Notes: generated by a model from the sequence alone, not told the origin. Shown: positions 14,478-48,200, numbered from the whole stretch's first letter. The stretch is DNA of 63,988 nucleotides, filler included, from Gonapodya sp. JEL0774 (GCA_027604505.1; 8 parts of 8 records of this genome joined end to end with filler, not necessarily neighbours in it), one strand, 5' to 3'. A program made the numbers and translations.

Positions 14478-14616
14478 CACATGCATATCGGAACAGAAAC
14501 CGATCATTTGATTTCAACTAAGAATTACTTTATCGTGGATACCCGATTTCCCAAACCCGCCAGTTACTCTGATCACCTACCATCCGACATCCGTTCCACT
14601 TTGAATTATATTCACC

Positions 14617-16330
14617 ATGTCTCTGAACCCCGACAACTTCACGGACCGAACAAACACTCTTCTCTCTGGTGCTCGCGATGCTGCATTGGAAAATCGACAC
14701 GCCCAGCTTTCTCCGGTTCACCTCGCCTACGCTCTTGCGAACGATGATGATCGCTTTCTGCCCAGTTTGATTCAAAAAGCCGGCGGCGACCCACAACTGG
14801 CATTGAGAGAGATCAACAAACTTCTTGTCCGTTTACCGAGTCAAGATCCGCCCCCAGACGAAGTCTCCATGGCACCCTCCACGGCTCGTGTGCTGAGATC
14901 CGCCGTCGATGCCCAGAAGAAACAAAAGGTGAGCATCGAGTACAGTCATTTTGGACACTCGTGCCAGTGTTCTTTTCTTGGGGCGATCATTACTGATACT
15001 GGTACTACTTCGTCTGTTAGGATACTCACCTGGCTATCGACCACATCATTCTTGCTCTCGCGTCGACGCCAGAGTTCCAGCAAGTGCTGAAAGCAGCAGG
15101 CACAACGCCCCAGCAACTGGAGGAGGCAATCAAGCAAACTCGAGGAAATCGCAAGGTTGAGTCAAAGAGCGCCGAAGGCACATATGACGCATTGAGCAAG
15201 TACGCTATCGATTTCACCAAAATGGCGGAGGAAGGGAAACTTGATCCGGTGATTGGCCGAGACGAAGGTGAGCATATCTTGCATTGGTTACTCTGTCGTT
15301 TCATTACGTTGTACCGCTGCTGACATGAATCCTTGTCATCGCGGCAATGTTCCAGAAATCCGCCGTGTTATTCGAGTGCTCGCCCGTCGCACTAAAAATA
15401 ATCCAGGTTAGTCGAAGCGATGAATGTGTAACAATCAAGTTCTTATCTCAATTCTATTTTTTGCGTTGTGACAGTCCTTGTCGGCGAGCCTGGCGTCGGA
15501 AAAACCGCCATCGTCGAAGGTCTCGCTCAGCGTATCGTGGCCGGCGACGTACCTCAGAACCTGCGCACTCGCCTCTGGAGTCTTGACATGGGAGCACTTG
15601 TTGCTGGTGCAAAATACCGAGGAGAATTCGAGGAACGGCTCAAGGCGTTGCTGAAGGAGGTGGTGGACGCCCACGGAGGTATAATTCTCTTCATCGATGA
15701 GATGCATCTCGTGCTGGGTGCCGGTAAAGCTGAAGGCAGCATGGACGCAGCCAATTTACTCAAGCCGCTGCTTGCCCGCGGAGAACTGAGGACCATCGGA
15801 GCGACAACACTGGATGAGTATCGAAAGTACGTGGAGAAGGACGCGGCTTTCGAGAGACGGTTCCAACAAGGTATGCTGTCACCATTGCAATGAGTGAGCG
15901 TGATCAATATGTTAATCGTCCCATCCTCCTAGTCTTTGTTGGCGAACCATCCGTCCACGACACCATTTCCATCCTACGTGGGCTTAAAGACCGATACGAA
16001 AATCACCATGGAGTCCGAATCGCGGATGGTGCATTGGTGTCTGCAGCCCAGCTTGCGGCTCGGTACATTACGAACCGACGATTGCCGGACAAGGCAATTG
16101 ATTTGGTAGATGAAGCGTGTGCGAATGTGAGGGTACAATTGGACTCGCAGCCGGAGGAGATCGATGATCTGGAGAGGAAGAAGTTGCAGCTTGAGGTTGA
16201 GGAAACTGGTAAGTAACGCTCCCCTTTTTGCTGGGATTCTGATATTTCTCCCCGTGATGCAAACTCACGCGAACATTTCACACCTCCCAGCGCTTGCGAA
16301 AGAGAAAGACCAAGCCTCCAAGGAACGTCT
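14617..16330 (+). CDS. HSP104: Hsp104/ClpB AAA+ disaggregase; multi-exon, 3' truncated by contig end
   Basis: Clp N-domain; [27 protein letters not shown]; Walker A GEPGVGKT; Walker [60 protein letters not shown]. Confidence 0.97.
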
Positions 16331-16430
16331 NNNNNNNNNNNNNNNNNNNNNNNNNNNNNNNNNNNNNNNNNNNNTTAATTAATTAANNNNNNNNNNNNNN
16401 NNNNNNNNNNNNNNNNNNNNNNNNNNNNNN

Positions 16431-17045: not shown

Positions 17046-20000
17046 ATGAACACCGACGCAATCATGAGGAGTTGCGTGGTAATATCGCGCCTTTGAATCT
17101 TCCTGGGCGAACATTCGTTAATTGTCCCAGCGTTTCCCACAGCCGATGACGAGGCCGTCAAATCGTACGGACCCAAATTACTCAAAACTCCTCAAAATCA
17201 ACGTTGAGTTTCCAATCAAGCTCGGCGTCATCGTTTTCGGAGCTCCGTTTGGTGGCAAGACGACCGCGTTGAAGGCCGTGCAAGCCAAGCTCACTGGGAC
17301 GGAGGACATCGCGTTCTTTTACTATGGTGAGGAGCTCCGGGCACTGGGAAACTCGCGAGCAGACGCAGCAAAGGAGTCGCAGGTCGATCAGAAACAGCAG
17401 TCCTTACTCGAAAGCGATCGTGCAGTGGTGGTCATTGATGGGGTGAAAACTCTGAAACAGTTGACATCGACACTTCAAGCTTTCGAGAAGAGCCAAAGAT
17501 CAGCGCTTGCGATCCATATCAAGTTGGACAGAATGGCAGATGCGCTGAACCGCTTGCAGTCAATACAAGGCCCACCTGCCGCTCAAAGTCGCGGTCACCG
17601 TGGAGGTTACTCCAGAATTGCAGATCGAAAGGAGACAAAATACGAGCTGGAATCAAGATGGAGATCTTGGTCTCGGGAATCTCCGAATATTCTGGCTATC
17701 TTGAGGGATTCGGAGATTCTGTTGGAGTTGGATAGTAATCGTTCTACCCCGGGAACTAGTTCCCTCGAGGAATTGCAAAGGTTGCTCTACAGGGAGGTAC
17801 ATTGGTTACCGAAGAGCACTTCACCAATCGGCTTTACGCACTCAGATGTAGGAAAGGCTATTTCGGCGCAAGCGAGGTCCCTCCTTCGTGTGGATTCATT
17901 TGCACTTTGGTCTCCTTCTCGAGTTTTGCTGAATGACAGGGACTTGAAGGTAAACACAAACGATTGTTCCTCTTACCATTGCAACTCTCACCTGCCAAAT
18001 AGTGGCTTATGCAACCAGGGAGCTACCATTTCTACCGGGCGTTCTCTGGTAATCCGGGATTCCTTTTCGTCACGAAGGAGGTTGCACTGTTTGGTGTCAA
18101 CTCACAGCAAGGTGTTTGGACCGCATTTCGCACTCCCACAATAGTTCCGGATGAGACAATTCTGGCGGGCACTTTGGTGACAACCCCTAATGGCAAGAAG
18201 CTTTTCGTGTGTGATGACATCGTTCTATGTGATGGCAAGATCACCTGGCACCTTCAACTCCCCCAGCGAGCTGGGATTCTTGAACGAGTTGTTTCAGATA
18301 TGGTGAACGCCTTGATGTGGAGTGAGACAAGAAATGAGGACTTTGGAGTAGTCAGAGTTTGCAGGACTTCAATCCAATCGGTTTTGCGAGACTCGCTCGA
18401 ATGTGCGATAACACAGGAGGACATTCGGCCCTACAGCAACGGCTTTCACTTCAAAATGTCCTCGTCATATTATAATTTTGGAACTGATGATATGGGCTTT
18501 CTGTGGTCTCCTGAACAGAACGGTCTGTTTGTGGTTGGGATGCGTTCGCACCTTCAAGGATACTCGGGTCGAATCACTACAAGTTCACTTCTTACCTTAG
18601 AAGATTGGCAAGCTGCTGATTTTGACAGTTTTGGGCAGCGCGTCATATCCAACTGTGTTTCATTGGATTTACGGTTACCAACCTTCCCAACCAGTTGGAG
18701 AGACAACTTAAACAGCCCTCGGAGCCTTTATCTGGTAGATGTGGGCACTTTAGTTTCACGGCCAAAAGTCTCCTCCAAATATGTTTCTCGGGCGGGTTCA
18801 AGCTCGAATGCACAAAGTGCCATTTGGAAACCATTTGAATCAAAGCCAATTTGCACAGCTTTGATGAAACAGATAGCTCAAGCCCGTGAGCAACCTTTCT
18901 CTGAAGTTGAATTTTTGGTAAAGCTTGGTCTTGCTGAAAAGAAGCTAAACGGTAAGCGGATCACTGGAGCTCATCATTGTAGGTAGTGCCCCAAGTTTGA
19001 GATCAAGTTCGTTCCACTGTTACTGCAGCATCAAGCTCCTATCGTTCAAAAGGCGAACCGCATCCCAGTGTTGGGCGAGAGTTTGACTCAATCTACAAAG
19101 AGGCCATGGACCTTGAAGCTGCCGGGCTTGTGGAAAGAACTTGCGATGAAGAAACAGGGCTGGAGATCTTCAACTACCGGCAGTTGGCACCGAGAACAAG
19201 CTCCATCTCTTTGTATCGTGGCCTTGTTCTCCACCCCGCCGAGAAACGGGTCATCACCCACCCCTTTGTCAGATTCTTCGAGTCTAACCACACAACAGCC
19301 TTCGGCAATGATGACAGTCATAACAGTGTTCTTGAGCAACCTACCTCGACAGAATCCGAAGGCTCGAGTGCCCAGGTAGAGGCAACATCCAAGGTAGACG
19401 GCAGTTTGGTGATTGTGTTCAAGTTTCGTGGTAAAATACTCACTTCGACCCGCCGGAGGATGAACTCTGAGCAAGCTCTTGCCGCAAAATCATGGATATA
19501 TTCCCACTGCTCAATTGCAGCTTTTCAAGAAGCAAAGACGTATCTTTTTGAACTTGTCGGCGGCAACAATCAGCTTGTGGTGCAGTATCCATTCGAAGGT
19601 CTTGTTCTTTTGGCTGTTGTGGACGAAAATGGATTGGAATGGGATCGTGGTCGTCTTGTGTCGCTGGCCAGCGCACTACAAGTTCCTGTCACACCAATGC
19701 TCAAAGGTCCTCTCTCTGCGTTTCGGGAAGATCAGGCAATGCACTCCGAAAGCCTAACAAAAGGTGCCACTCCTGTCCGAGAAGGTTGGGTCATTAAGTT
19801 TGGAAATGGGTTGCGAGAGAAACTTGTTTATGACGATTGGAAGGAGGCGTGGTTTCTTGGTCGGAAAGCCTCGCCGTTGGAAGTATGGAAGAAGCTCCGA
19901 ACAGGCAAGTTTGACGATTGGCTAGGAACGCTCCCACTCTTCGTTGCCCAAGAAGCGCTGGAACAAGCATGGGCATTAATGATCAGGTTCCGCAAGGTCA

Positions 20001-20605
20001 TTAAGATTTTGGATGCGGAGATTCCTGACGCGGTAAATCTTTCACCAGAAGATAAACTCGCGTTTTCAGATACTGCAGAGATGGAATTGGAAAATCTTGG
20101 ATTGATCAATGTTGCGCATAAGCTTTTCCCTTTGGGGCGAGCAGGTCCCAATCATGTCAAGGAGATGATAGCTGGAAGTAATACGATCCAGCATTTCCCT
20201 TCGTGCCCTTTATGTGGCTCTGTCATGGACTCAATCCGACCTGATAGTCAGAGTATTCCTGGTTATTCACCATCTCCGAGCTTCAAACAGAACTGGTCAA
20301 AGGGATGGCAAAGTGAGGTGGTACAAATTTCCAGTCAGCCCAAGTCTTTGCCTTTGGAAATTATTATTCGTTGTATGGAGTATCTCCCTGTGCCTGTGCT
20401 TTTGCATACGAGGACTGTTTGTCGGTGGTGGGAGGTGGCATCACAGGAACCCTCTCTTCAGGTGGCAGTGACATCCTTCAAGATAGAGATACTCCGTCGA
20501 CAAGAGGCTATCGCATACTCTCCATCCTACAAGAATTACAACAGATCACCTTCTCCACCAGATTTTAGCAGAAGGTCATATAGATGTGGGTATGGAAGTG
20601 GCTGA
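17046..20605 (+). CDS. Multidomain protein: adenylate-kinase-like P-loop + degenerate mRNA-capping GTase-like domain + T4 Rnl1-type RNA ligase + C-terminal F-box (~1,125 aa)
   Basis: ORFs 17122, 18009 and 19106 join in frame through introns 17950-18002 (phase 0) and 18952-19028 (phase 1); probable first intron 17079-17130. Motifs: GAPFGGKTT and VVIDG; TILAGTLV, FVCDDIV, SNGFHF..GFLWSP; EIFNY, YRGLVL, KVDGS, TYLFEL, EGWVI, EKL; LPLEIIIRCMEYL..VCRWW. Confidence 0.85.
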
Positions 20606-22047
20606 CCTGCTCCAACGTACTCAAGATACTCAGGAGTTGGGAGTTGTCGTTGTTGGTGCTGTCGAAACTTTGATGATTGACAGATAGAGAGCTTTCGGTG
20701 AAAACTGGGACAATTTTCAAATTCTCTTTTGGTTTGAGCTTTGATCGTGGAGGATGAAGGTGTTTGCCCCGCCGTGGCAGAAAGGACATGAGCTCCATTT
20801 GCACTTTTCACGAATATACATTGTACGGGTCTGAGGAACAGATTCGGTGCAGAAACATATGTACTACAGTGGACGGTCACCTGGAAACTCCCAAAGTTCC
20901 CCAATACCACCTTCCTCTCCGGCAACCGACCGCCATGCCAATTCTCGAACCGCGTAAGTTAGCGATGAGCATCAAAGGAAATGTTCCTGTTCTCACGCTC
21001 AAGTTCGCGTTTCAGGCATGTACTTGCCTCTCCCTTGACGGGCGGGATATCGGAGCGTTCGCACACGACAAAGGACGTTCGAGTCCGGACTCTGTCGCGC
21101 TCCTTCGTTCCGATGGTTCTCCCACATCCCAGATGGGGGTTGGTTTCGGCCAGGATTACTCGTACGGTTCGTTTAGTCCCTCGGTGAGAACTCGCAAGGC
21201 AATGCCCGCGCGAAGAGGAGGATTCGGCGAAATAAATGAAAATACAATGAATATTCGGGATATGGGTGGATTAGAAGGGCGATGCTGAATGAGCTGGAGT
21301 TCGGGATGGAGGACGGGAAATCCCAGGGTGGGACGTGTGGACGCGCTATGCAATGGGAGGAGCGGTGCTACGAGACGCTGGAAAAACTCAATGAAAGATG
21401 TTGGAGGACTACGGGAGATGGATTGGGGAAGTGTCGTATCTTGTTATGGGGACCGTATAATGGGTTGGTGCCTGTGTTACCTTTTGAGCTTTCAACTCAT
21501 CTTCTCATACCATGCATTCCGTCTCCGTGCCTTTTTCCTTACAGTGAACACCTCCTCGCGGTGGTCCCCGGACAACGGTGCAGGTTCTCCTGCAACGGCC
21601 AACGTTCACCGAAGGTTTGTCGCAAGAGTTTATTTGAGAGTTCTGTCAGAGGGGCTAGGTTACATAGAGTCTTTTGTAAAGCACAATATCACAGATTTTT
21701 TGTCGGAATTTCAGTAAAGAATGCTTCCGTCAATGTGAAACAGTATCGTCAGGAGGATGCTTGACGTCTCCGTCAGGCACCCGGCTTGAAATCAATCGGT
21801 CAACGTGTTCCGACTGAACGGGGGAAAGCAGAATGATATTACAAACGGGGGGAATAAAGCTTGTGGTACAAAGAGAAAAAAGAAAATGGAGAATGTAGCT
21901 AACGTAATCGGTATCATAAAGATTCAATCAATATGACCAATACCAGAAATATCGCCAAATGGAAGCATTTCAATAATGCAGGGGTTGCGTGGGTGTCAAA
22001 TACTCTCCACAGAGCCAAGCAAGCGCCTTCTCAGCAATTAAAAGCAC

Positions 22048-34988: not shown

Positions 34989-37900
34989 TTATGCCGTAAA
35001 CAAATCATGATCCTTGACCACTCCATTAAGTTTGTCAGAGGCATTGACATGAATGCGATAGATTTCCAATACCCACGGCATGGGAAGATCCCACACACTG
35101 CTTGTCCTTGTCCCAGGAATCTCTCGCATTATGGGAGACTTGGTGCGTCCATGTTCAGGAATCCCCTTCTTACATTGAAAGAACTTAGGTTTTGAGTTGA
35201 TATTCTTCTTGCAGTCCCCCCGAAAGACGATCCTTGGGCACACCGAGCACTTGACTTGAACTACAACCCCATCCGGTGAGACAAGAAAGTTCAAGATCTC
35301 ACTCAGCTGCTTCCCTTCTGCCCTCAACTCCGCGTTTGGTAATAGCTGTGTCAGCTGAGCATCCAAATTCCGCACCTCAAGTTGTGGAGCAGCATTTGTG
35401 AGCATGAGTGTTGGACGTCCACCAGTCGGCATCAACTGAATAAGGAGGTCCAGCATCTGCTCACGGTCAAAATCATTTACAAGCCGTGTTGTGTCCGTCA
35501 AAATAGAGGCATTGGGGAACACGTGTGCAAGTGCAGTGAACTCAGGTCCAAGAGAGTGCCACGCTTGGGAGCCCTTGGGGAAGACCTCTTTTGCAGTTCG
35601 ATAGCCAAATCTGGAAAACTCGGGGAGAAAGTGGAGACGAACATGACTGAGAATACGTACGTCATGTGGGTAATAAACAAGGTTGTACGGCAGTCCTTCT
35701 CCAGAGCGTTCCTTCTCCTCCAAGCAAGTGTGAGTTGTTTCGGCCTGAGTTTCACTCCTCTGCAAGTACGCAAAGCTGCACTCGGGATCTACTGTCCAGC
35801 GATAGAACTTCCACCGCGACCGGTCTCCCTGTAGATACTGTCTCTGCGTCAATTTCAGTATGGCCCCAAGGAAGAATTGATGGTAACGGGGTGACGTGGG
35901 GTTAGCGCATGCACCCGCGGTTCGTGTTTGCTGCTGCCTCACGTATTGAGACGGAGTTGACTCCTTGTCCTTCTTGGTTCGTTTGCTTGCTGGGAGTTCG
36001 TCAGGCGCAAAGTCGAATTCACGTTGTACCCTGTGATTCGTGGTGTTGTCAGGTTGTGACAACTCGTTCTGACAAAGACCGTTTGCTGAGCGGAAGTAGG
36101 TTGTTCCAGTAGGGAGCGAGAGTATCCAGAATCGGTATTCTTCATCATGAGGAGTGATGGCACCCCAACTTGGAATATGGGGTGGCACCAGTGGAATACC
36201 ATCCCAAGCGCCCCGAGAACGTCCACCACTTGCCTCGAAAGCACCAATGTGCGCCTGTAGATCCAGCATACGAGTGCTTGAGAAAGGTGCGCCATTTGCT
36301 TTAACTGGCAGGATTGCTGGGTTGCACGCCCTGGTGAAAGGGGGCCGGGCACCGAGGATTGCGGTTGGTGATGCGGACTGTCCCGGTGAATCATCCCACG
36401 TCGGAGAGGTTACTGCAGTGACGGGAGATGAAATCTCTGACAAGGGCAAACTCGGCGAGAGACTGTTGACTGTCGAAATTGTAGGCCGTGATGGAATTGT
36501 CCTCGGAGCTCCGGCCACTCCGCAGTGTTCGTCCAACTGCTCGCCTAAAGAAGTCCCAACGTTCCAGTCAAACTCATTTACTCCACCAAGTTTCCCTCTG
36601 TGACTTGCTGAGAGAAATCGAAGCGACAGAATGGCTTCCGTCCACGCTTGAAGCTCTGATCGCATGTCTTCCAAGACGACACGAACCTGATCCACATCGG
36701 GCAACCTCTCGAAACCGCTAATGATGTCTCGGAGAATCGATTTATTGATAGGGACATCGTCTGGCTCGGAGGCAGTTATGTTGTTGGGACAAGAGCGTTC
36801 CTGGTTAATTCCGGTTGTAAGGATCAACATTAAAACCTTCCAACAAACAACTCCCCAGTCTTTGAGTCTTTGAACCACTCACCAACATACGGGATTTCAC
36901 TCGTCGACACAAAACCACTGCAGCGTACGCATCGAGATAAGCCGCTAGTAACGAAACAACAGCGTATAGTTGAAGCTCAAGATGAGCAAGTGTCGGGTCG
37001 TGCTTCATTTTCCCAGGATGAATATTTGGCACCAATATGGTCCAGTCCGAATCTTTCGTACCAAACTGCCACATATATGTTTGACCTGCGACGGTCAAAA
37101 TGCTTGTGCCAAACTTCCGAAATCCAGTGTTGCCCTTGGTTGCGGTGATGACACGAGTTCGTGCTGGCACTTTACGATCGTCCCGGAGAGAAGATCCCGA
37201 AAGCTTTGCCAGTTCATCCACTGCTGCTTCGTCCAAGCCCTCCAGTTTCGTCATTCCATTGAAAGCTGCTGCAATTGGCGTCTCGCCCATGACATGAACA
37301 GACACGGGGCATAAAACGGAAAGACGACGACGAAACAGGAGAGTCCAGAAGAAGATGAGTGCGAAGTGCACGAGAGTGCAGAAGAAGTCCATGAATGGTG
37401 GGAATATAAATGGAGAGCGGTGGAGAGCCTCTTGTGAGATTTGTCGATGCTCGAGTGAGACTTTTGGAGGTTGCTGATTCACATCGATCTTCTCCGTTTC
37501 TTCATCCAGCTGACATACATGAATCAAAAGCTGGATTTCGCGGGCAATATTTGGGCCGATCCCGCCGCAAGGGTGATCGAATGGAGTGTTCAAGGCAAGT
37601 GCATTGACAGTCACATCCTTCCCGACTCTCAGTTGCGTCACCCGCCCATCCACCACAGTGGCCGTTTCTGCCATCTGCGATGCTACAAGCTCCAAGCCAA
37701 GAGGTCCGCATGCCTTTCTCGCCCAAGATGGAAGTCCTGCCAAAATGTTCTCGCCATTCCGACCAAATTCCTGATAGAGACGTCCGAGAAGTGATTGTCG
37801 ACCACGTTGAAAGTAAGAATCTGCCGAGTATTGATTTCGTCCGATGGTGAGGGTTTTAGAAACCACGTCGAGTGATACTCGATTTGACGAGGATAAGATC

Positions 37901-41946: not shown

Positions 41947-44900
41947 TCAAATGTTGTCGTTGGTTGTATTGTCCATGTCTTTGCGCAGATGATCCATCCC
42001 AAACCGCGACAGAGATTTCCAAATGGGGTCGCTTTCCTCACCCTCGCCATCTTGAATTGAGATCAAACACTCCCAACCGCTTTTCATTCTCGTGGTTTGC
42101 CCCGCTGGATCCACAAAGCTGTCCGTCGCACCACCAACATTCATGGACCAGGAAGAATTGCTCCCGGATGACGGACCACCTGTGCATTCCGGTGCCAGCT
42201 CCTTGCTTCGCGACTCTTGCTCATCTGCCACGAAAGAATTCCGGGAGGAATTGCTGATTACTGGACCAGGAGCAAAATCCTCGTCCTCGGTGTCACTACA
42301 CTCTTCAACAACAAGTTCGAAATCTCATTACGATAAGCGTGTTGTTCCGTTTAGTGGATCCAACGTTGACGGAAAGTGAGAGCACAGATCCAATCGCGCA
42401 GCACAGAAGAGCATTGTCAGCGAAATCCACGGTTCTTTGTCAACCTACGTACTCACCATCTTCCGTGCCACTTTGCATGCTGTCCTGATGTCGAGGTTCT
42501 GCCACTCGGATGTAGGACTTGCGGTCCGCCTCAGCCTTCTCAATATGTGTTGAGCTCCATGTGTAAGGGCGTGGGTCCATCTGCCACTTCCAACTGGTGA
42601 GCGTTTCAAACCGACGGAGCGTGCGTTTCACTCGTGTTGCGAAAGAGCTCGTCACTGCATCAAATTTTCTGTTCGCCTCTTCCTCTGTGCACCCTTCGGC
42701 CCGTCGTTCCATAAAGCCGTATTTCACACCTTCAAAAATCTTCTTTATAGGAAGTGCTTCACGGCCACCGCCAGAGCGGATTACTCGAAATCCATATTTC
42801 TGAAGAACGTGTCCAAGACGTTGTAGCATTGAGTCAGAAAAATTGAACTTGTGGAGAGGATGCAACTTGACCATGTCGTTCGGATGAGGTAGGAAACCTC
42901 GGCTCACAAGCTTTTCAGCCGCGGCAATCCTGAGCTCAAAAGTCAAACCACAGAAACCGACATCTGCTGGGTGATCCCCTGCCTCTGCCAAAGCTTGGAC
43001 AGCTTCCGGGAACGTTCCTTCCGGTAGTAGCGACTGGCACCATGGAATCTCAACTGGTGTGAAACCTCGTAGCCACAGGTGACCTTCACAAGGTGTGTCT
43101 TCATTTTCTGCCGGGACCAAATGTTCTTTCCCAATCATCTCTGCAACAACATCACATAACTCCTCATTAGTCAATCGAGACATATCACAGGGATCTGAAA
43201 CCCCTTCGCTGCTCCTGGCTGCGTCTACCAGGCTCCAGCACCGCACAAGTTTCTCTGTTCCGCGATTTCTGGCGCGGGCAAATTTGGGCATGTGTTCCAA
43301 TGTCCCACCAAACAGTCGACTCACAAATCCATCAATTGACAATGCTTGCAGACCAACCTTCGCCAGTGTCGGATTGATCCGCCGTCTTCCTACGCTGGCT
43401 AGTGATTTTTGATATGCCAGCGCCCTCTGAGTAGGGGTCCTCTGCATGTGAGCATCTAAGACGCGGAGCTTTTCATGGTCGATAAGGTCCACTTTCGGCA
43501 AGAGGTCCATCCGAATACTGTTAGCGACACGGTGTGAATGCTTGTGTGCTGCGAGAGATTGGCAAATGGCATGGAAGTAGTGTCCTATGGAGAGTGCGTA
43601 CGATCTCATTCCTGCTCGTTGCAGTACGGCACAAATAGTTGTGTACCCTGACAGGTACCCAAGCGCTAGTACGCCTTCCGCAGTCCTTGGGTTTCCCGGA
43701 AAACCACCTCTGGAGAGATGAGACGCGACAGTCATTCCTAGGGGCCCAAACCGGTCCCTGGTTTGGTTCGCAATGCGTGAGTTCAAAGTGTGGCTCCACT
43801 GCCTTCCGAGTTTGAACTCTTCCATCCCAACCATTACCCTGTCGGCAATTCTATCCGGCAATCCCCGACGCCCGTCCTGGCAAAGAAGTTGTGCTGTTTG
43901 TACCGCAACAGCTCTCACGCCAAAGAACTCGTAGCAACCGGTCCATGCAATGAACGCCATGTGTCTCTCCAAGAACCCAGCTAGCACGGAATCAATGCGT
44001 GGAAATCGTGTGCTTTTTGCTGGCAATGAACAAGCACTCCATTTGTGGCACCTAGATACGTCGCAGTACTTTGCTTGGTAAGTGCAAGCTGGTGCAACAG
44101 CTGTAATTGTTGCAACCCCTATGCCCGCTTCCTGTGCTACTGTTCGCCATGCAGACATTGTGACCGATGCGAGTGTGGAGTTGGTGAGCTCTTCATCAGC
44201 ACACATATGTTGGAACGCCGCATGGCCAGTTACACAGTCAGTAGCGAGGATTCCCTTGCCACACTGCCCCACTAGTAACGCCGCTGGTACTGGTGCCCCT
44301 GGGGCTCTGGGAGGGTGTCTGAGAGCGAACTCAACGTACGTCCCCAGAAAGGTTTTCCACGTTCCCATCTCGCCAAGCCTACCAGTAAAACACAATGACG
44401 TGGCTCCTCCTGTGACACCTCGGAAGTCCGAATCTTTTCGCCTCCCCTGCTCGACCAGAAGCTTCCACGAGTCCTTGAAACTCTGGTGATCGACCCATCG
44501 GAAGGCGGCCGCTATGGCCACGGCAAACCCATTTATATCCATCTCCAAAGTGGGACGCGATTGAAAGTAGAATTTGATATATATGTCCGTGTACGCGTGC
44601 GTGTAATTGATGAATAATCTGTGATACAGTTCCGCAAAGTCCTGGTTGTCGTGCAGGAATGTCAACAAACGCTGGAACGGCTTTATGGTCAATAGTTCTC
44701 CATGTGAATCTCCTGCTGCAGCGGTCGTGGGTGGCCTTCCATCATCGAGCCTGACCCAGTCCCCATACCCTCCTGGAAACAGCTTTATCACAACACGCGG
44801 GGGGATACCACCAGTGTTGGACTTCCGAGTGAGAGCAAATTTCATCTCGTTGAGAATTGGGCAAACATCCCGGAGGTCCTGTTGTCTGGATTGCTCTGAT

Positions 44901-45016
44901 ATGTCTTGTTTTGCATGATTCGAGAGAGCAACCAGGATTTGACCGGAACCATTCGCCGAAAGCGATTCCATTATTCGATGCTGAAGAAAACGAAGGGGAT
45001 CCGTGCGATCTGACAT
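41947..45016 (-). CDS. Orphan protein with one ~2.56-kb intron-free exon and a short acidic last exon
   Basis: ORF 42440-45466, likely start MSDRTDP at 45016. GTGAGT donor at 42456; the last exon reads DFELVVEECSDTEDED.. to 41947. No family recognised. Confidence 0.6.
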
Positions 45017-45208
45017 TTTTAATGTAGGATGTGAGCAGTTGTTGTCTTGAAGAAAACCAGTCTTCTCATTGACCAGAGTAACGTGCATAGTCGAGCGTGC
45101 GAATCCTGGACATTTTCTAGCACAATCTGACATAAAACAGGTACACTTCACGACCAAAGACAGCCTGATTGCTGACACGACAACTGAATGAGTATTCTGA
45201 GCTAGGCA

Positions 45209-48200
45209 ATGTTCAATTCGCTCCGTTTTGCATCCAATGAGCCGCGTGGGAACGCCAAGACCCAGAACACAGAACAACGACAACCTTGTCCAAACCCATT
45301 GGAAGGACAGCACAACAGCTCTATTGCTCGCGGACAAAGCTCCGGTCATTCGGTGGTGAGAATGTCTGTTCACTGTGTCAGCAACATCTTCGCTGGAAAT
45401 CTCTACATAGATGCGAAGGCCACCATTCGCCGATTGCGACGGTTCCAAGGCGTACGGGACGCTCACATGGAAAATCAGTCTATCTGACTATTGCAAGTGC
45501 TGGAGACTGGAGCTCCCCCAATTACAGGATGAAGGATTCTGGAGTGGTGCGGATGTCGATGAAGATAGTGAGCAAACCGGCGGACATTACCCACGGATCC
45601 CGCACTGAGGTTATTCAAAACTTATTTGTCAGGACTCCCAACTTTGGTGACGGGCCTGATGAATGATGGCCACCGCTCCCCCCACAAGTTGGAGCCCCAA
45701 CACTTGGAGGATCTGGTAGCAAACTCGTTGTCCATCATGGACAAATTCAAGCTTGAGGAGTCATTTGTTACGAGTAAAGCATTAAAGTTCCTGCATGTCG
45801 GTGAGTTGCAAGGCTGGGTACGCAAGCGGGACCAGGAAGGAACAGTTTACGTATTCATTCTATATCCAGTGTACGACATCTTGTTCAACAGTCGCACACC
45901 AACAAGTGAGCATACCATCCTCAGGCTCCTCCCTCATGTCTTGGAACAACGACTGCTCATACACATGGCTGACGGGGACCGCAACGGTCTGTTCCTTCCT
46001 GACGCCATCCTATGCCTTGGATTTCTCGCAACGGCATCGTCAAAGACCCCAACGCCGCTTCTTCAACTCATGAACTTGGCCGTCCAGAGGGCTGAGTCGC
46101 ATGCTGAGGACGAGTCAGCGGTCTTGAGGTATAGACAGGAGGCCAAACGGTTGAAAGATGATCTACTGCGAGGGCAAGGCGAGGTGTTGACATTGTCGCA
46201 GCGTCTGAGAACAGCAGAGACGGAACTTGGGGACATGAAGAACGGCAGAAGCAACATGCAGAACTTACTCAATGACCATGTCGAGGAAGTTCGCCGCGTG
46301 AGAAAAGACAATGACAACTTAAAAAAGTCACTTGCTAAGTCAGAGGAAGAGAAGATGCTCTTCGCGGTGGAGGTGGCATTAGCTGCACTAAAGAGCAGGG
46401 CAATGAGCGCGCAGGAGCCCATGACAGACACTGACGTGGACGAAGCCAGGGAGACCTTGGAGGAATGGGTCGGTGAGTTCAGTCAGTACGAGGATGCAAG
46501 TCTTACCTGCTGATGACAGGTGTCCCCAGGTTTACGATCCTGCAAAAATGCCTCTCCAGATGCCCCTCAGAGTGATGCGGAAAGCAATTCTTCGTCTAGG
46601 ATGGAGTCTCCTGCAAAACCGGAAAGGCAAAGTCCCACGGTAGCTGCAAATCAGACTTACACACCTGCCAATCCCGCTTCTCATCATCATCCTGTTCGAG
46701 CCCCCGTCCCTGCCATCTCCGGTTCTGGTCATCAGCTTGTTCGAGCCCCTGCGTCTGCCATCTCCGGTTCTGGTCGTCAGCCTGTTCGAGCCCCTGCGTC
46801 TGCCATCTCCGGTTCTGGTCGTCAGCCTGTTCGAGCACCTGTGTCTGCCAACCCTGGTTCTCGTCATCAGCCTGTTCCAGCCCCCACCCCTGCCATTTCC
46901 TTTCTGCGGCCAATCCTCCAAGGTGCGCCAAGAGTACCTCTCTGCGTCAAGGACGGAAACACAACTAGTCCCGCAACGTCGAATCAACAGGTGTAAGTGG
47001 CAACGTATTCAGACTGCACACTGTCGGATGCTGTGCAAACTAACCCTTCAATGCTGCTCAATTCTGCTTTTTCCTCATACAGAATTGTACACCCCACCGT
47101 GATCAGCGAGCGCGAAAAAGAACTTGATGCATGCAAATCGGAGCTTGCTCGAGTCCAATCAAAGCTAGCGGAAAAGGAGATCCAGTGTGTTCGAGTTATG
47201 TCGCAGATGGAAATTATGAGGTCTATGCTGGACGACAGGATTGGGGCAAATGGGAAATTGAGAGAGGAATGCGGGGGCGCCAAAAAAGCTGTCGAACTTT
47301 TGAACGCGGAGGTGGAGAGGCTTCACTCCGAGGGGCGAGCGAAGCAGAGTACCATCACGCGCTTAGAGCAAGATGTTAGTCGCCTGCAGCATGACCTCCT
47401 GGAGCAGGAAAGGAGAAAAACGACCCTGAAGGCGGAAGTGCCACAGCTGCGACAGCCTGCACCTCTCTTGCGAAGCGATAGCTCGAGCTTGGACATTCAG
47501 GATCTCTTCCGTCGCGATAATTCAAACTTAAACGTTCAGGATCCACAAGAGGAGACAAACGTCTCACCGAGAACAAGCTACAAAAGAGTGAGTGAACAAT
47601 GAGAGAGAGAGGTGCGTGTTTACATCAATCCACAATTCTTGCCTCTGCCATTTTAGAACACCTCGGCGATTTCCCCTCCTCGCGATGCACCCCGCACCAA
47701 GCTGGCCCGAGCCTTGCACGAATATGCAAGCAGGAAGAAGAGCATGCGTGCGTCTAGGATGACAATTGAGGATTCTGATTCGGATGGCACTGATACGCGT
47801 TCCCGGAGTCCCGAGCTCGGGTGTCCCAATCCACATGTGAGTTGTTGGGCTTTGTTGGATAACCGCATGAAATACTGACTGGGGCTGGTGAATTGTGAAC
47901 GAGAACAGCCTCTGCCTCTCATGAACGTACATAAACCTACAAGCTCAAGTTCGCGCGTGATTTCGAGTGGACGTGGGAAACAGGCACGCAACAGAGCAAT
48001 GCCTGCAGCTGATCACGACAGTATTTCTTTGGATTCTCATTCAGCCTCAAGAAGAGCTCGGAAAGGAAAGACAACTGATCCGAATGCGAACACCAATGAC
48101 AGTCCAGCAATCCACATTGCTCCGATTTCAATATCGCAACCAAATACAATCTCGGCAGCAATGGCAACAACCTTGTTCCGAGATCTTGGAAATTTTGCCA

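Follow-up and report, generated by a model that had tools for sequence, protein, structure and literature searches.

A predicted four-domain protein of Gonapodya and its scattered family: a nucleotide-kinase-like domain, a capping-type fold, a phage-type RNA ligase and a likely F-box in one chain

Quite what a eukaryote would do with a single chain that joins an adenylate-kinase-like domain, the fold of a capping guanylyltransferase, a phage-type Rnl1 RNA ligase and, at its C terminus, a likely F-box is the question raised by a locus of Gonapodya sp. JEL0774 (GCA_027604505.1). It lies at 17046-20605 of the window, a stretch of 63,988 nucleotides (nt) in which eight parts of records of this genome are joined with filler. 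A first-pass annotation had taken the locus for an undescribed RNA-repair or surveillance module, possibly anti-ribotoxin and linked to ubiquitylation. The same N- to C-terminal domain order recurs in a family scattered among eukaryotes, apparently undescribed although built from known modules. We read the family as one that rescues 5'-monophosphate RNA ends, by re-capping or by ligating them, and the Gonapodya copy as mainly a 5'-end-binding ligase, likely tied to ubiquitin ligase through its F-box; we give this reading about an even chance. It points past the first-pass annotation in a front half like that of the trypanosome recapping enzyme TbCe1, in a degenerate capping domain and in a family-wide change of ligase motifs.

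One spliced gene and its domains

Three open reading frames (ORFs; 17122-18144, 18003-18986 and 19001-20605) splice in frame through two introns without a stop, and the product is 1,109 amino acids (aa) long counted from the ATG at 17146:

17146..17949, + strand: exon 1, beginning at an in-frame ATG (database model P0001 has the same start)
17950..18002, + strand: intron 1, 53 nt, GTAAAC...TAG, GT-AG, phase 0
18003..18951, + strand: exon 2, from ORF analysis
18952..19028, + strand: intron 2, 77 nt, GTAAGC...CAG, GT-AG, phase 1
19029..20605, + strand: exon 3, through the stop codon

That these ORFs form one gene through these two introns, as the first-pass annotation had it, is confirmed at the level of sequence. 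Both junctions are in the gene model of P0001, the 944-aa database protein of Gonapodya sp. JEL0774, the ligase exon of which is identical to ours; a homologue profile built without the Gonapodya protein aligns gap-free across junction 1; and a conserved ligase HP motif at 19061 lies 5' of the first ATG (19106) of the third ORF, which therefore needs an upstream exon. The fused core is also contained in a single ORF in transcript-derived members, for example those of Physarum and MMETSP records. The start at 17046 and the length of about 1,125 aa first put forward require a third intron, 17079-17130, that was not listed with them, and such an upstream start is possible. The P0001 model additionally splices out 18322-18858 and a piece of about 40 nt near 20586-20625. 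We rejected both extra introns, since the former contains guanylyltransferase motifs IV-V (profile E 1.6e-5 for that stretch alone) and the latter deletes a GYGS end that 17 of the 25 four-domain homologues also have, and so the two-intron model fits the homologues better. A shorter in-frame intron may nevertheless lie within 18520-18858.

The domains of the product are as follows, with E-values for family profiles that omit the Gonapodya protein:

17212..17733 (aa 23-196), + strand: adenylate-kinase-like P-loop domain; family profile E 4e-10, and a fold match
17803..18551 (aa 220-451), + strand: degenerate domain of capping-guanylyltransferase fold, spanning intron 1; family profile E 1e-23
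18552..18951, + strand: stop-free stretch at the position of the homologues' capping OB (oligonucleotide/oligosaccharide-binding) domain; predicted local distance difference test (pLDDT) below 50 in the model
19058..20284, + strand: whole phage-type Rnl1 ligase, C-terminal domain included; PF09511, hhalign and fold
20321..20461, + strand: likely F-box, C-terminal; Pfam F-box-like E 6e-4, below cut-off; family profile E 7e-3
20588..20602, + strand: C-terminal GYGSG, matching the GYGS[Y/W]-like family end

The GYGS[Y/W]-like end, where homologues have it, mostly stands behind an acidic or Gly/Tyr-rich tail. In a Pfam scan of the whole protein RNA_lig_T4_1 is above its cut-off, F-box-like matches as listed, mRNA_cap_enzyme has an E of 0.085 and the P-loop is weak. 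A profile from 11 family members, the Gonapodya protein among them, retrieves capping enzymes (1e-27), T4 Rnl1 (1e-9), adenylate kinases (9e-8) and the F-box of Fbw7 (1e-3). With the fold comparisons below, these searches bear out all four domains that had been called by eye from motifs. The motifs quoted for them are present, the P-loop starting at 17239 and KVDG at 19391.

The ligase exon as query retrieved 12 other long proteins and, at E <=0.001, 1,858 representatives, the best 150 of which were examined. All four family profiles are matched by 25 of 154 other proteins and the guanylyltransferase and ligase profiles by 52 of the 154, counts that are partly circular because these members themselves went into the profiles. 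As evidence independent of the family profiles, Pfam finds mRNA_cap_enzyme in 11 and an F-box (E <=0.05) in 9 of the 12 long homologues; four homologues (P0002, P0003, P0012 and P0074) have an F-box above the Pfam cut-off. The proposed link to Skp1-Cul1-F-box (SCF) ubiquitylation draws on these stronger matches and on the weak one of the Gonapodya copy itself.

Active sites of the ligase, the capping fold and the kinase

The ligase domain scores 29.6 bits against PF09511 (cut-off 28.3) and aligns by hhalign with stand-alone phage-type ligases over its entire length, C-terminal domain included (E 9e-44). In a structure model of P0001 (mean pLDDT 59.6), which served for both the ligase and the kinase fold matches, it superposes on T4 Rnl1 with a VIA Z of 22.3 and a root-mean-square deviation (rmsd) of 2.6 over 232 aligned residues. 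Motif I, KVDG at 19391-19402, the motif III Glu, the EG of motif IV and the first Lys of motif V are all present. A residue census of 53 proteins having both guanylyltransferase and ligase found the motif I Lys in 53/53, the motif III Glu in 52/52 and the motif IV Glu in 49/50. A CxxC at 20204-20215, before the ligase C-terminal motif, is by eye also there in the Nowakowskiella and Globomyces copies.

Of the residues expected in a capping guanylyltransferase, the Gonapodya copy has replaced the motif I Lys, III Glu, IV Asp and V Lys and retains the IIIa Asp, a loss of four of five; the motif I Lys is kept in 32 of 39 aligned members, and the domain is degenerate also in three chytrid copies and in some protist and metagenome copies. 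The stretch 18552..18951 has no match to the family profile of the OB domain, which the homologues possess. In a separate model of exon 2, used for the capping-domain fold matches, the domain fits the cap-binding domain of snurportin-1 (Z 17.2, rmsd 3.3, 166 aligned) and the Candida capping enzyme 1p16 (Z 16.5, rmsd 2.7, 176 aligned), which as modelled amounts to a tie. By sequence it groups with the guanylyltransferases of the family, and the capping step is predicted to have been lost in the Gonapodya copy.

The kinase has its closest sequence and fold matches among adenylate and UMP/CMP kinases: the alignment of a family kinase with adenylate kinases is full-length and takes in the STGDxLR and DGFPR regions, and the P0001 model superposes on adenylate kinase with a VIA Z of 16.5 (rmsd 4.0, 176 aligned). 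The P-loop Lys, the Arg of the nucleoside monophosphate (NMP) site and the DxxK Lys are retained in Gonapodya, and the P-loop Lys is kept in 34/34 aligned members, those with a degenerate guanylyltransferase included. Set against 24 distinct phage Pnk-type kinases, namely those adjoining stand-alone ligases, the family kinase aligns in 24 columns, at the P-loop only, and acquisition of the kinase from phage together with the ligase was rejected on account of that confinement. The Asp three residues before the NMP-site Arg, which we take to be the general base of polynucleotide kinases, occurs in 11/34 members and is Glu in Gonapodya; the Arg itself is retained in 28/34, and therefore a 5'-phosphate acceptor is favoured. 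With neither full-domain similarity to Pnk-type 5'-OH kinases nor a conserved Asp, the sequence marks the kinase as NMP-type and not Pnk-type.

Pfam scans of family members found no domain for healing 2',3'-cyclic-phosphate or 3'-phosphate ends. This and an NMP-type kinase together point to 5'-monophosphate RNA and not to ribotoxin-cut tRNA, so that the first-pass idea of anti-ribotoxin healing and sealing is weakened even as the architecture on which it was built turns out to be conserved.

Spread and ancestry

Homologues with the fused core are named from green algae, octocorals, amoebozoans, a cryptophyte and chytrids. The algal and protist members come from Volvocales, Cymbomonas, Haematococcus, Physarum, Arcella, Rhodomonas and Dinobryon, the coral members from the octocorals Paramuricea and Dendronephthya, and the chytrid members from Nowakowskiella, Globomyces and Obelidium, several named members being partial. 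Intronless copies occur at nine loci, on metagenome contigs that are densely packed with genes and carry TBP and numerous unknown ORFs, and these virus-like-contig copies nest among algal sequences in the trees. The contigs resemble those of large eukaryotic viruses; we infer a viral origin because their ORFs are compact and intronless, TBP is present and many ORFs are unknown, while no viral hallmark gene was found on the virus-like contigs that carry family copies. In IMG/VR the fusion was in none of the 80 loci kept from 153 stretches matching alignment A1, and scans there with P0065, P0074, alignment A2 and the neighbouring TBP gave no matches. Nor did a prokaryote genome scan with one motif match; the full architecture is absent from the BFVD and annotated-phage matches, and no four-domain cluster is in the ESM Atlas among clusters of at least 50 members.

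In the trees a well supported branch sets the stand-alone ligases of about 390 aa apart. Two short proteins initially binned with them are placed inside the fused family and are probably fragments of it. The three chytrid copies cluster together in all three trees; the Gonapodya copy has long branches about it and a position that varies among trees. A shared origin of the Gonapodya and chytrid copies is not claimed: the grouping has an SH-aLRT of 90 in one quick ligase tree, is unresolved in the careful tree and is absent from the quick full-length tree. Edaphochlamys has four family sequences, and coral-like copies are many. Two of the Edaphochlamys proteins, P0014 and P0021, have consecutive locus numbers and partly degraded capping motifs, and one of the pair carries a duplicated capping-ligase-F-box block. 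P0008 has extra cytidylyltransferase-like and RanBP zinc finger domains, and P0019 has a weak MIF4G match (E 0.002) that hints at a tie to cap-binding complexes.

Proposed fates of a 5'-monophosphate RNA end

The known enzyme most like the front half of the family is TbCe1, described in PMC11417388 and PMC5027499 as a cytoplasmic RNA kinase and guanylyltransferase of Trypanosoma brucei that converts 5'-monophosphate RNA (pRNA) to GpppRNA, by way of the diphosphate (ppRNA) according to PMC11417388; TbG5-IP, with NTP hydrolase and guanylyltransferase domains, is called structurally similar to TbCe1 in PMC5750579. Both share with the family a kinase and a guanylyltransferase domain in one chain, and the N-terminal P-loop kinase fused to a guanylyltransferase domain of the TbCe1 type is there in the Gonapodya copy with its second domain degenerate. 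The family adds to this a whole Rnl1 ligase, an F-box and the GYGS tail, and the Gonapodya copy is without the guanylyltransferase Lys. TbCe1, the kinase of which we take to be adenylate-kinase-like, is set beside the family by its architecture and by a feature-based match rather than a direct sequence comparison. The first 530 residues of a coral member had as their first match in the ESM Atlas, the error rates of which are unmeasured for parts of proteins, a mostly Euglenozoan guanylyltransferase cluster (score 0.96; 199/256 features matched) with AAA_17 on 51% of its members. A search for shorter relatives gave one unnamed fragment.

The back half resembles T4 Rnl1 and the stand-alone phage enzymes in fold, in motifs I, III and IV and in the C-terminal domain of the relatives of about 390 aa. 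It differs from the pair of T4 Rnl1 and Pnkp in being fused, in its motifs V and Ia (see below), in a kinase that is not Pnk-type and in that no phosphatase was found. Fungal Trl1, with its order of ligase, kinase and cyclic phosphodiesterase (CPDase), likewise combines a P-loop kinase with a ligase of Rnl1-type fold (Z 19-20) in a single chain. The family puts the kinase first, inserts a capping domain, ends in an F-box and has a ligase nearer the phage enzymes, and no CPDase family matched in Pfam scans of the Gonapodya protein and 12 long homologues; the architecture is thus distinct from that of Trl1, as first supposed. Snurportin-1, the m3G-cap-binding domain of which is a non-catalytic cap binder with a guanylyltransferase fold, offers a fold likeness to the degenerate Gonapodya domain, tied with that of a true capping enzyme, whereas sequence places the domain with the family guanylyltransferases.

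In intact members, then, pRNA would arise through decapping or slicing. The NMP-type kinase would turn it into ppRNA, to which the guanylyltransferase would add GMP in the manner of TbCe1; alternatively the Rnl1 domain would adenylate the same 5'-phosphate and join it to a 3'-OH, and the end, whether capped or ligated, would be protected against 5'-to-3' decay. According to PMC7824862, Rnl1-type ligases require 5'-phosphate and 3'-OH ends and otherwise work on ribotoxin-type breaks together with kinases and phosphoesterases. No 3'-healing domain need be fused here, because both catalytic arms would start from a 5'-monophosphate. With its capping residues lost, the Gonapodya copy would be a ligase that carries an F-box and one or two modules for binding 5' ends: the dead guanylyltransferase fold may bind a 5' end or a cap, as snurportin-1 does, the kinase may bind or phosphorylate the 5'-phosphate, and the ligase would be the working enzyme. 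The F-box would bring Skp1-Cul1, setting the protein's own turnover or marking proteins at damaged RNA. The patchy spread, the paralogues and the virus-like copies make a role in host-virus conflict likely. A far wider proposal is that of a eukaryote-wide, horizontally shuffled triage enzyme of 5' ends, which would recap, ligate or adenylate 5'-monophosphate RNA with the choice coupled to SCF ubiquitylation, would be used by hosts from chytrid to coral and by algal giant viruses, for example in undoing decapping or RNA interference slicing, and in several lineages would have turned its capping domain into a snurportin-like sensor; this we advance tentatively and consider rather unlikely.

A number of observations weigh against the rescue of 5'-monophosphate ends. 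Chief among them is that loss of capping leaves the kinase intact: the P-loop Lys is kept also where the guanylyltransferase is degenerate, which is odd if the kinase serves capping alone, and the ligase would make poor use of a ppRNA end; readings in which the kinase heals 5'-OH ends or the protein is a sensor therefore stay alive. The ligase active site has itself changed. The second Lys of motif V, which we take to contact ATP in T4 Rnl1 (KxK in T4), is kept in 52/53 stand-alone ligases and is Val or Ile in 51/51 fused members (Val in Gonapodya), and motif Ia reads R-R-R in the fused family against K/R-G-S in the stand-alone enzymes; the extra arginines may reflect compensation or a changed reaction. 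Ligation may accordingly be altered or incomplete, and since the catalytic Lys is kept within an active site that has changed family-wide, we regard ligation by the domain as likely, not certain. The putative homology to TbCe1 comes from one language-model search with half of a homologue and not from the TbCe1 sequence, the snurportin-1 match is a tie of folds that shows no function, and the Gonapodya F-box scores 19.9 bits against a Pfam cut-off of 24.3. The functional context gives no help either, the neighbours in the window being an Hsp104/ClpB-type gene and unrelated genes.

If the substrate were instead ribotoxin-cut RNA, the kinase would act on the 5'-OH, the ligase would seal and a separate enzyme would heal the 3' end. 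The catalytic Lys of kinase and ligase in all aligned members, set beside a guanylyltransferase that decays in several, fits this, as do P-loop ORFs, mostly Pnk-like, beside stand-alone phage ligases at 45/80 loci (a loose motif scan) and a Tpt1-domain fusion about 1 kb from a family member on two virus-like contigs. The adenylate-kinase likeness, the phage match confined to the P-loop, the scarcity of the Asp at the presumed general-base site and the want of a healing domain in the Pfam scans all speak against it, and the intact guanylyltransferase of 32/39 aligned members would stay unexplained; we think it unlikely.

Equally unlikely, in our view, is that the protein marks or senses RNA ends in immunity, the ligase halting at adenylated RNA (AppRNA) or circularising foreign 5'-phosphate RNA, with RNA binding leading to SCF-dependent degradation of the bound proteins or of the sensor protein. 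A ligase site remodelled across the family, an F-box that has no ordinary substrate-binding domain behind it, a guanylyltransferase that has repeatedly lost catalysis while retaining its fold, and the multiple Edaphochlamys and coral-like sequences are consistent with such a role; no signalling domain was found in the family, however, and the intact copies on virus-like contigs fit protection of RNA better than its flagging. That the kinase is an ordinary nucleotide kinase recycling the AMP of ligation, in a loosely coupled, horizontally acquired fusion of minor role in Gonapodya, would suit its best matches, the long branches and the unstable tree position, but the fixed four-domain order in distant eukaryotes and the TbCe1-like pairing argue for a coupled function and make it highly improbable.

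Some further genes came to light around these loci. A 1,333-aa ORF with a Tpt1/KptA domain (PF01885, E 1e-17) lies at L004:13714-17715 (- strand) and also at L003:5220-9221, on virus-like contigs, next to TBP and about 1 kb from a family member. By eye it shows ligase-like, then P-loop kinase-like and two-histidine phosphoesterase-like motifs, it has no sequence match in the PDB, and judged from its sequence it could be a one-chain tRNA-repair enzyme. Across loci L010-L089 the phage-type stand-alone Rnl1 relatives often adjoin AAA_33 kinases of about 130-160 aa that lack a phosphatase domain. In the window the Hsp104/ClpB-type gene (14605-16340, + strand) runs into an N gap directly upstream of the fusion gene. 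Intronless ORFs at 42440-45487 (- strand) and 34989-36878 (- strand), of 1,015 and 629 aa stop to stop and with no Pfam match, are unusual in an intron-rich window and possibly of mobile or viral origin.

A full-text literature search gave no description of the architecture, with supplements and the review likeliest to list it outside its coverage; the portions of PMC13533422 consulted do not mention Gonapodya or F-boxes, and those of PMC9283932 add nothing further on the architecture. Trypanosomes are known to have a single characterised enzyme that recaps 5'-monophosphate RNA, and the kinase that serves recapping in mammals has yet to be identified, according to PMC11417388. The family offers clonable candidates for recapping, and for ligation by neither Trl1 nor RtcB, in algae, amoebozoans, corals and fungi, and supplies natural active and dead variants together with a ligase active site of its own, while an RNA-end enzyme bearing an F-box would directly link RNA damage to protein degradation.

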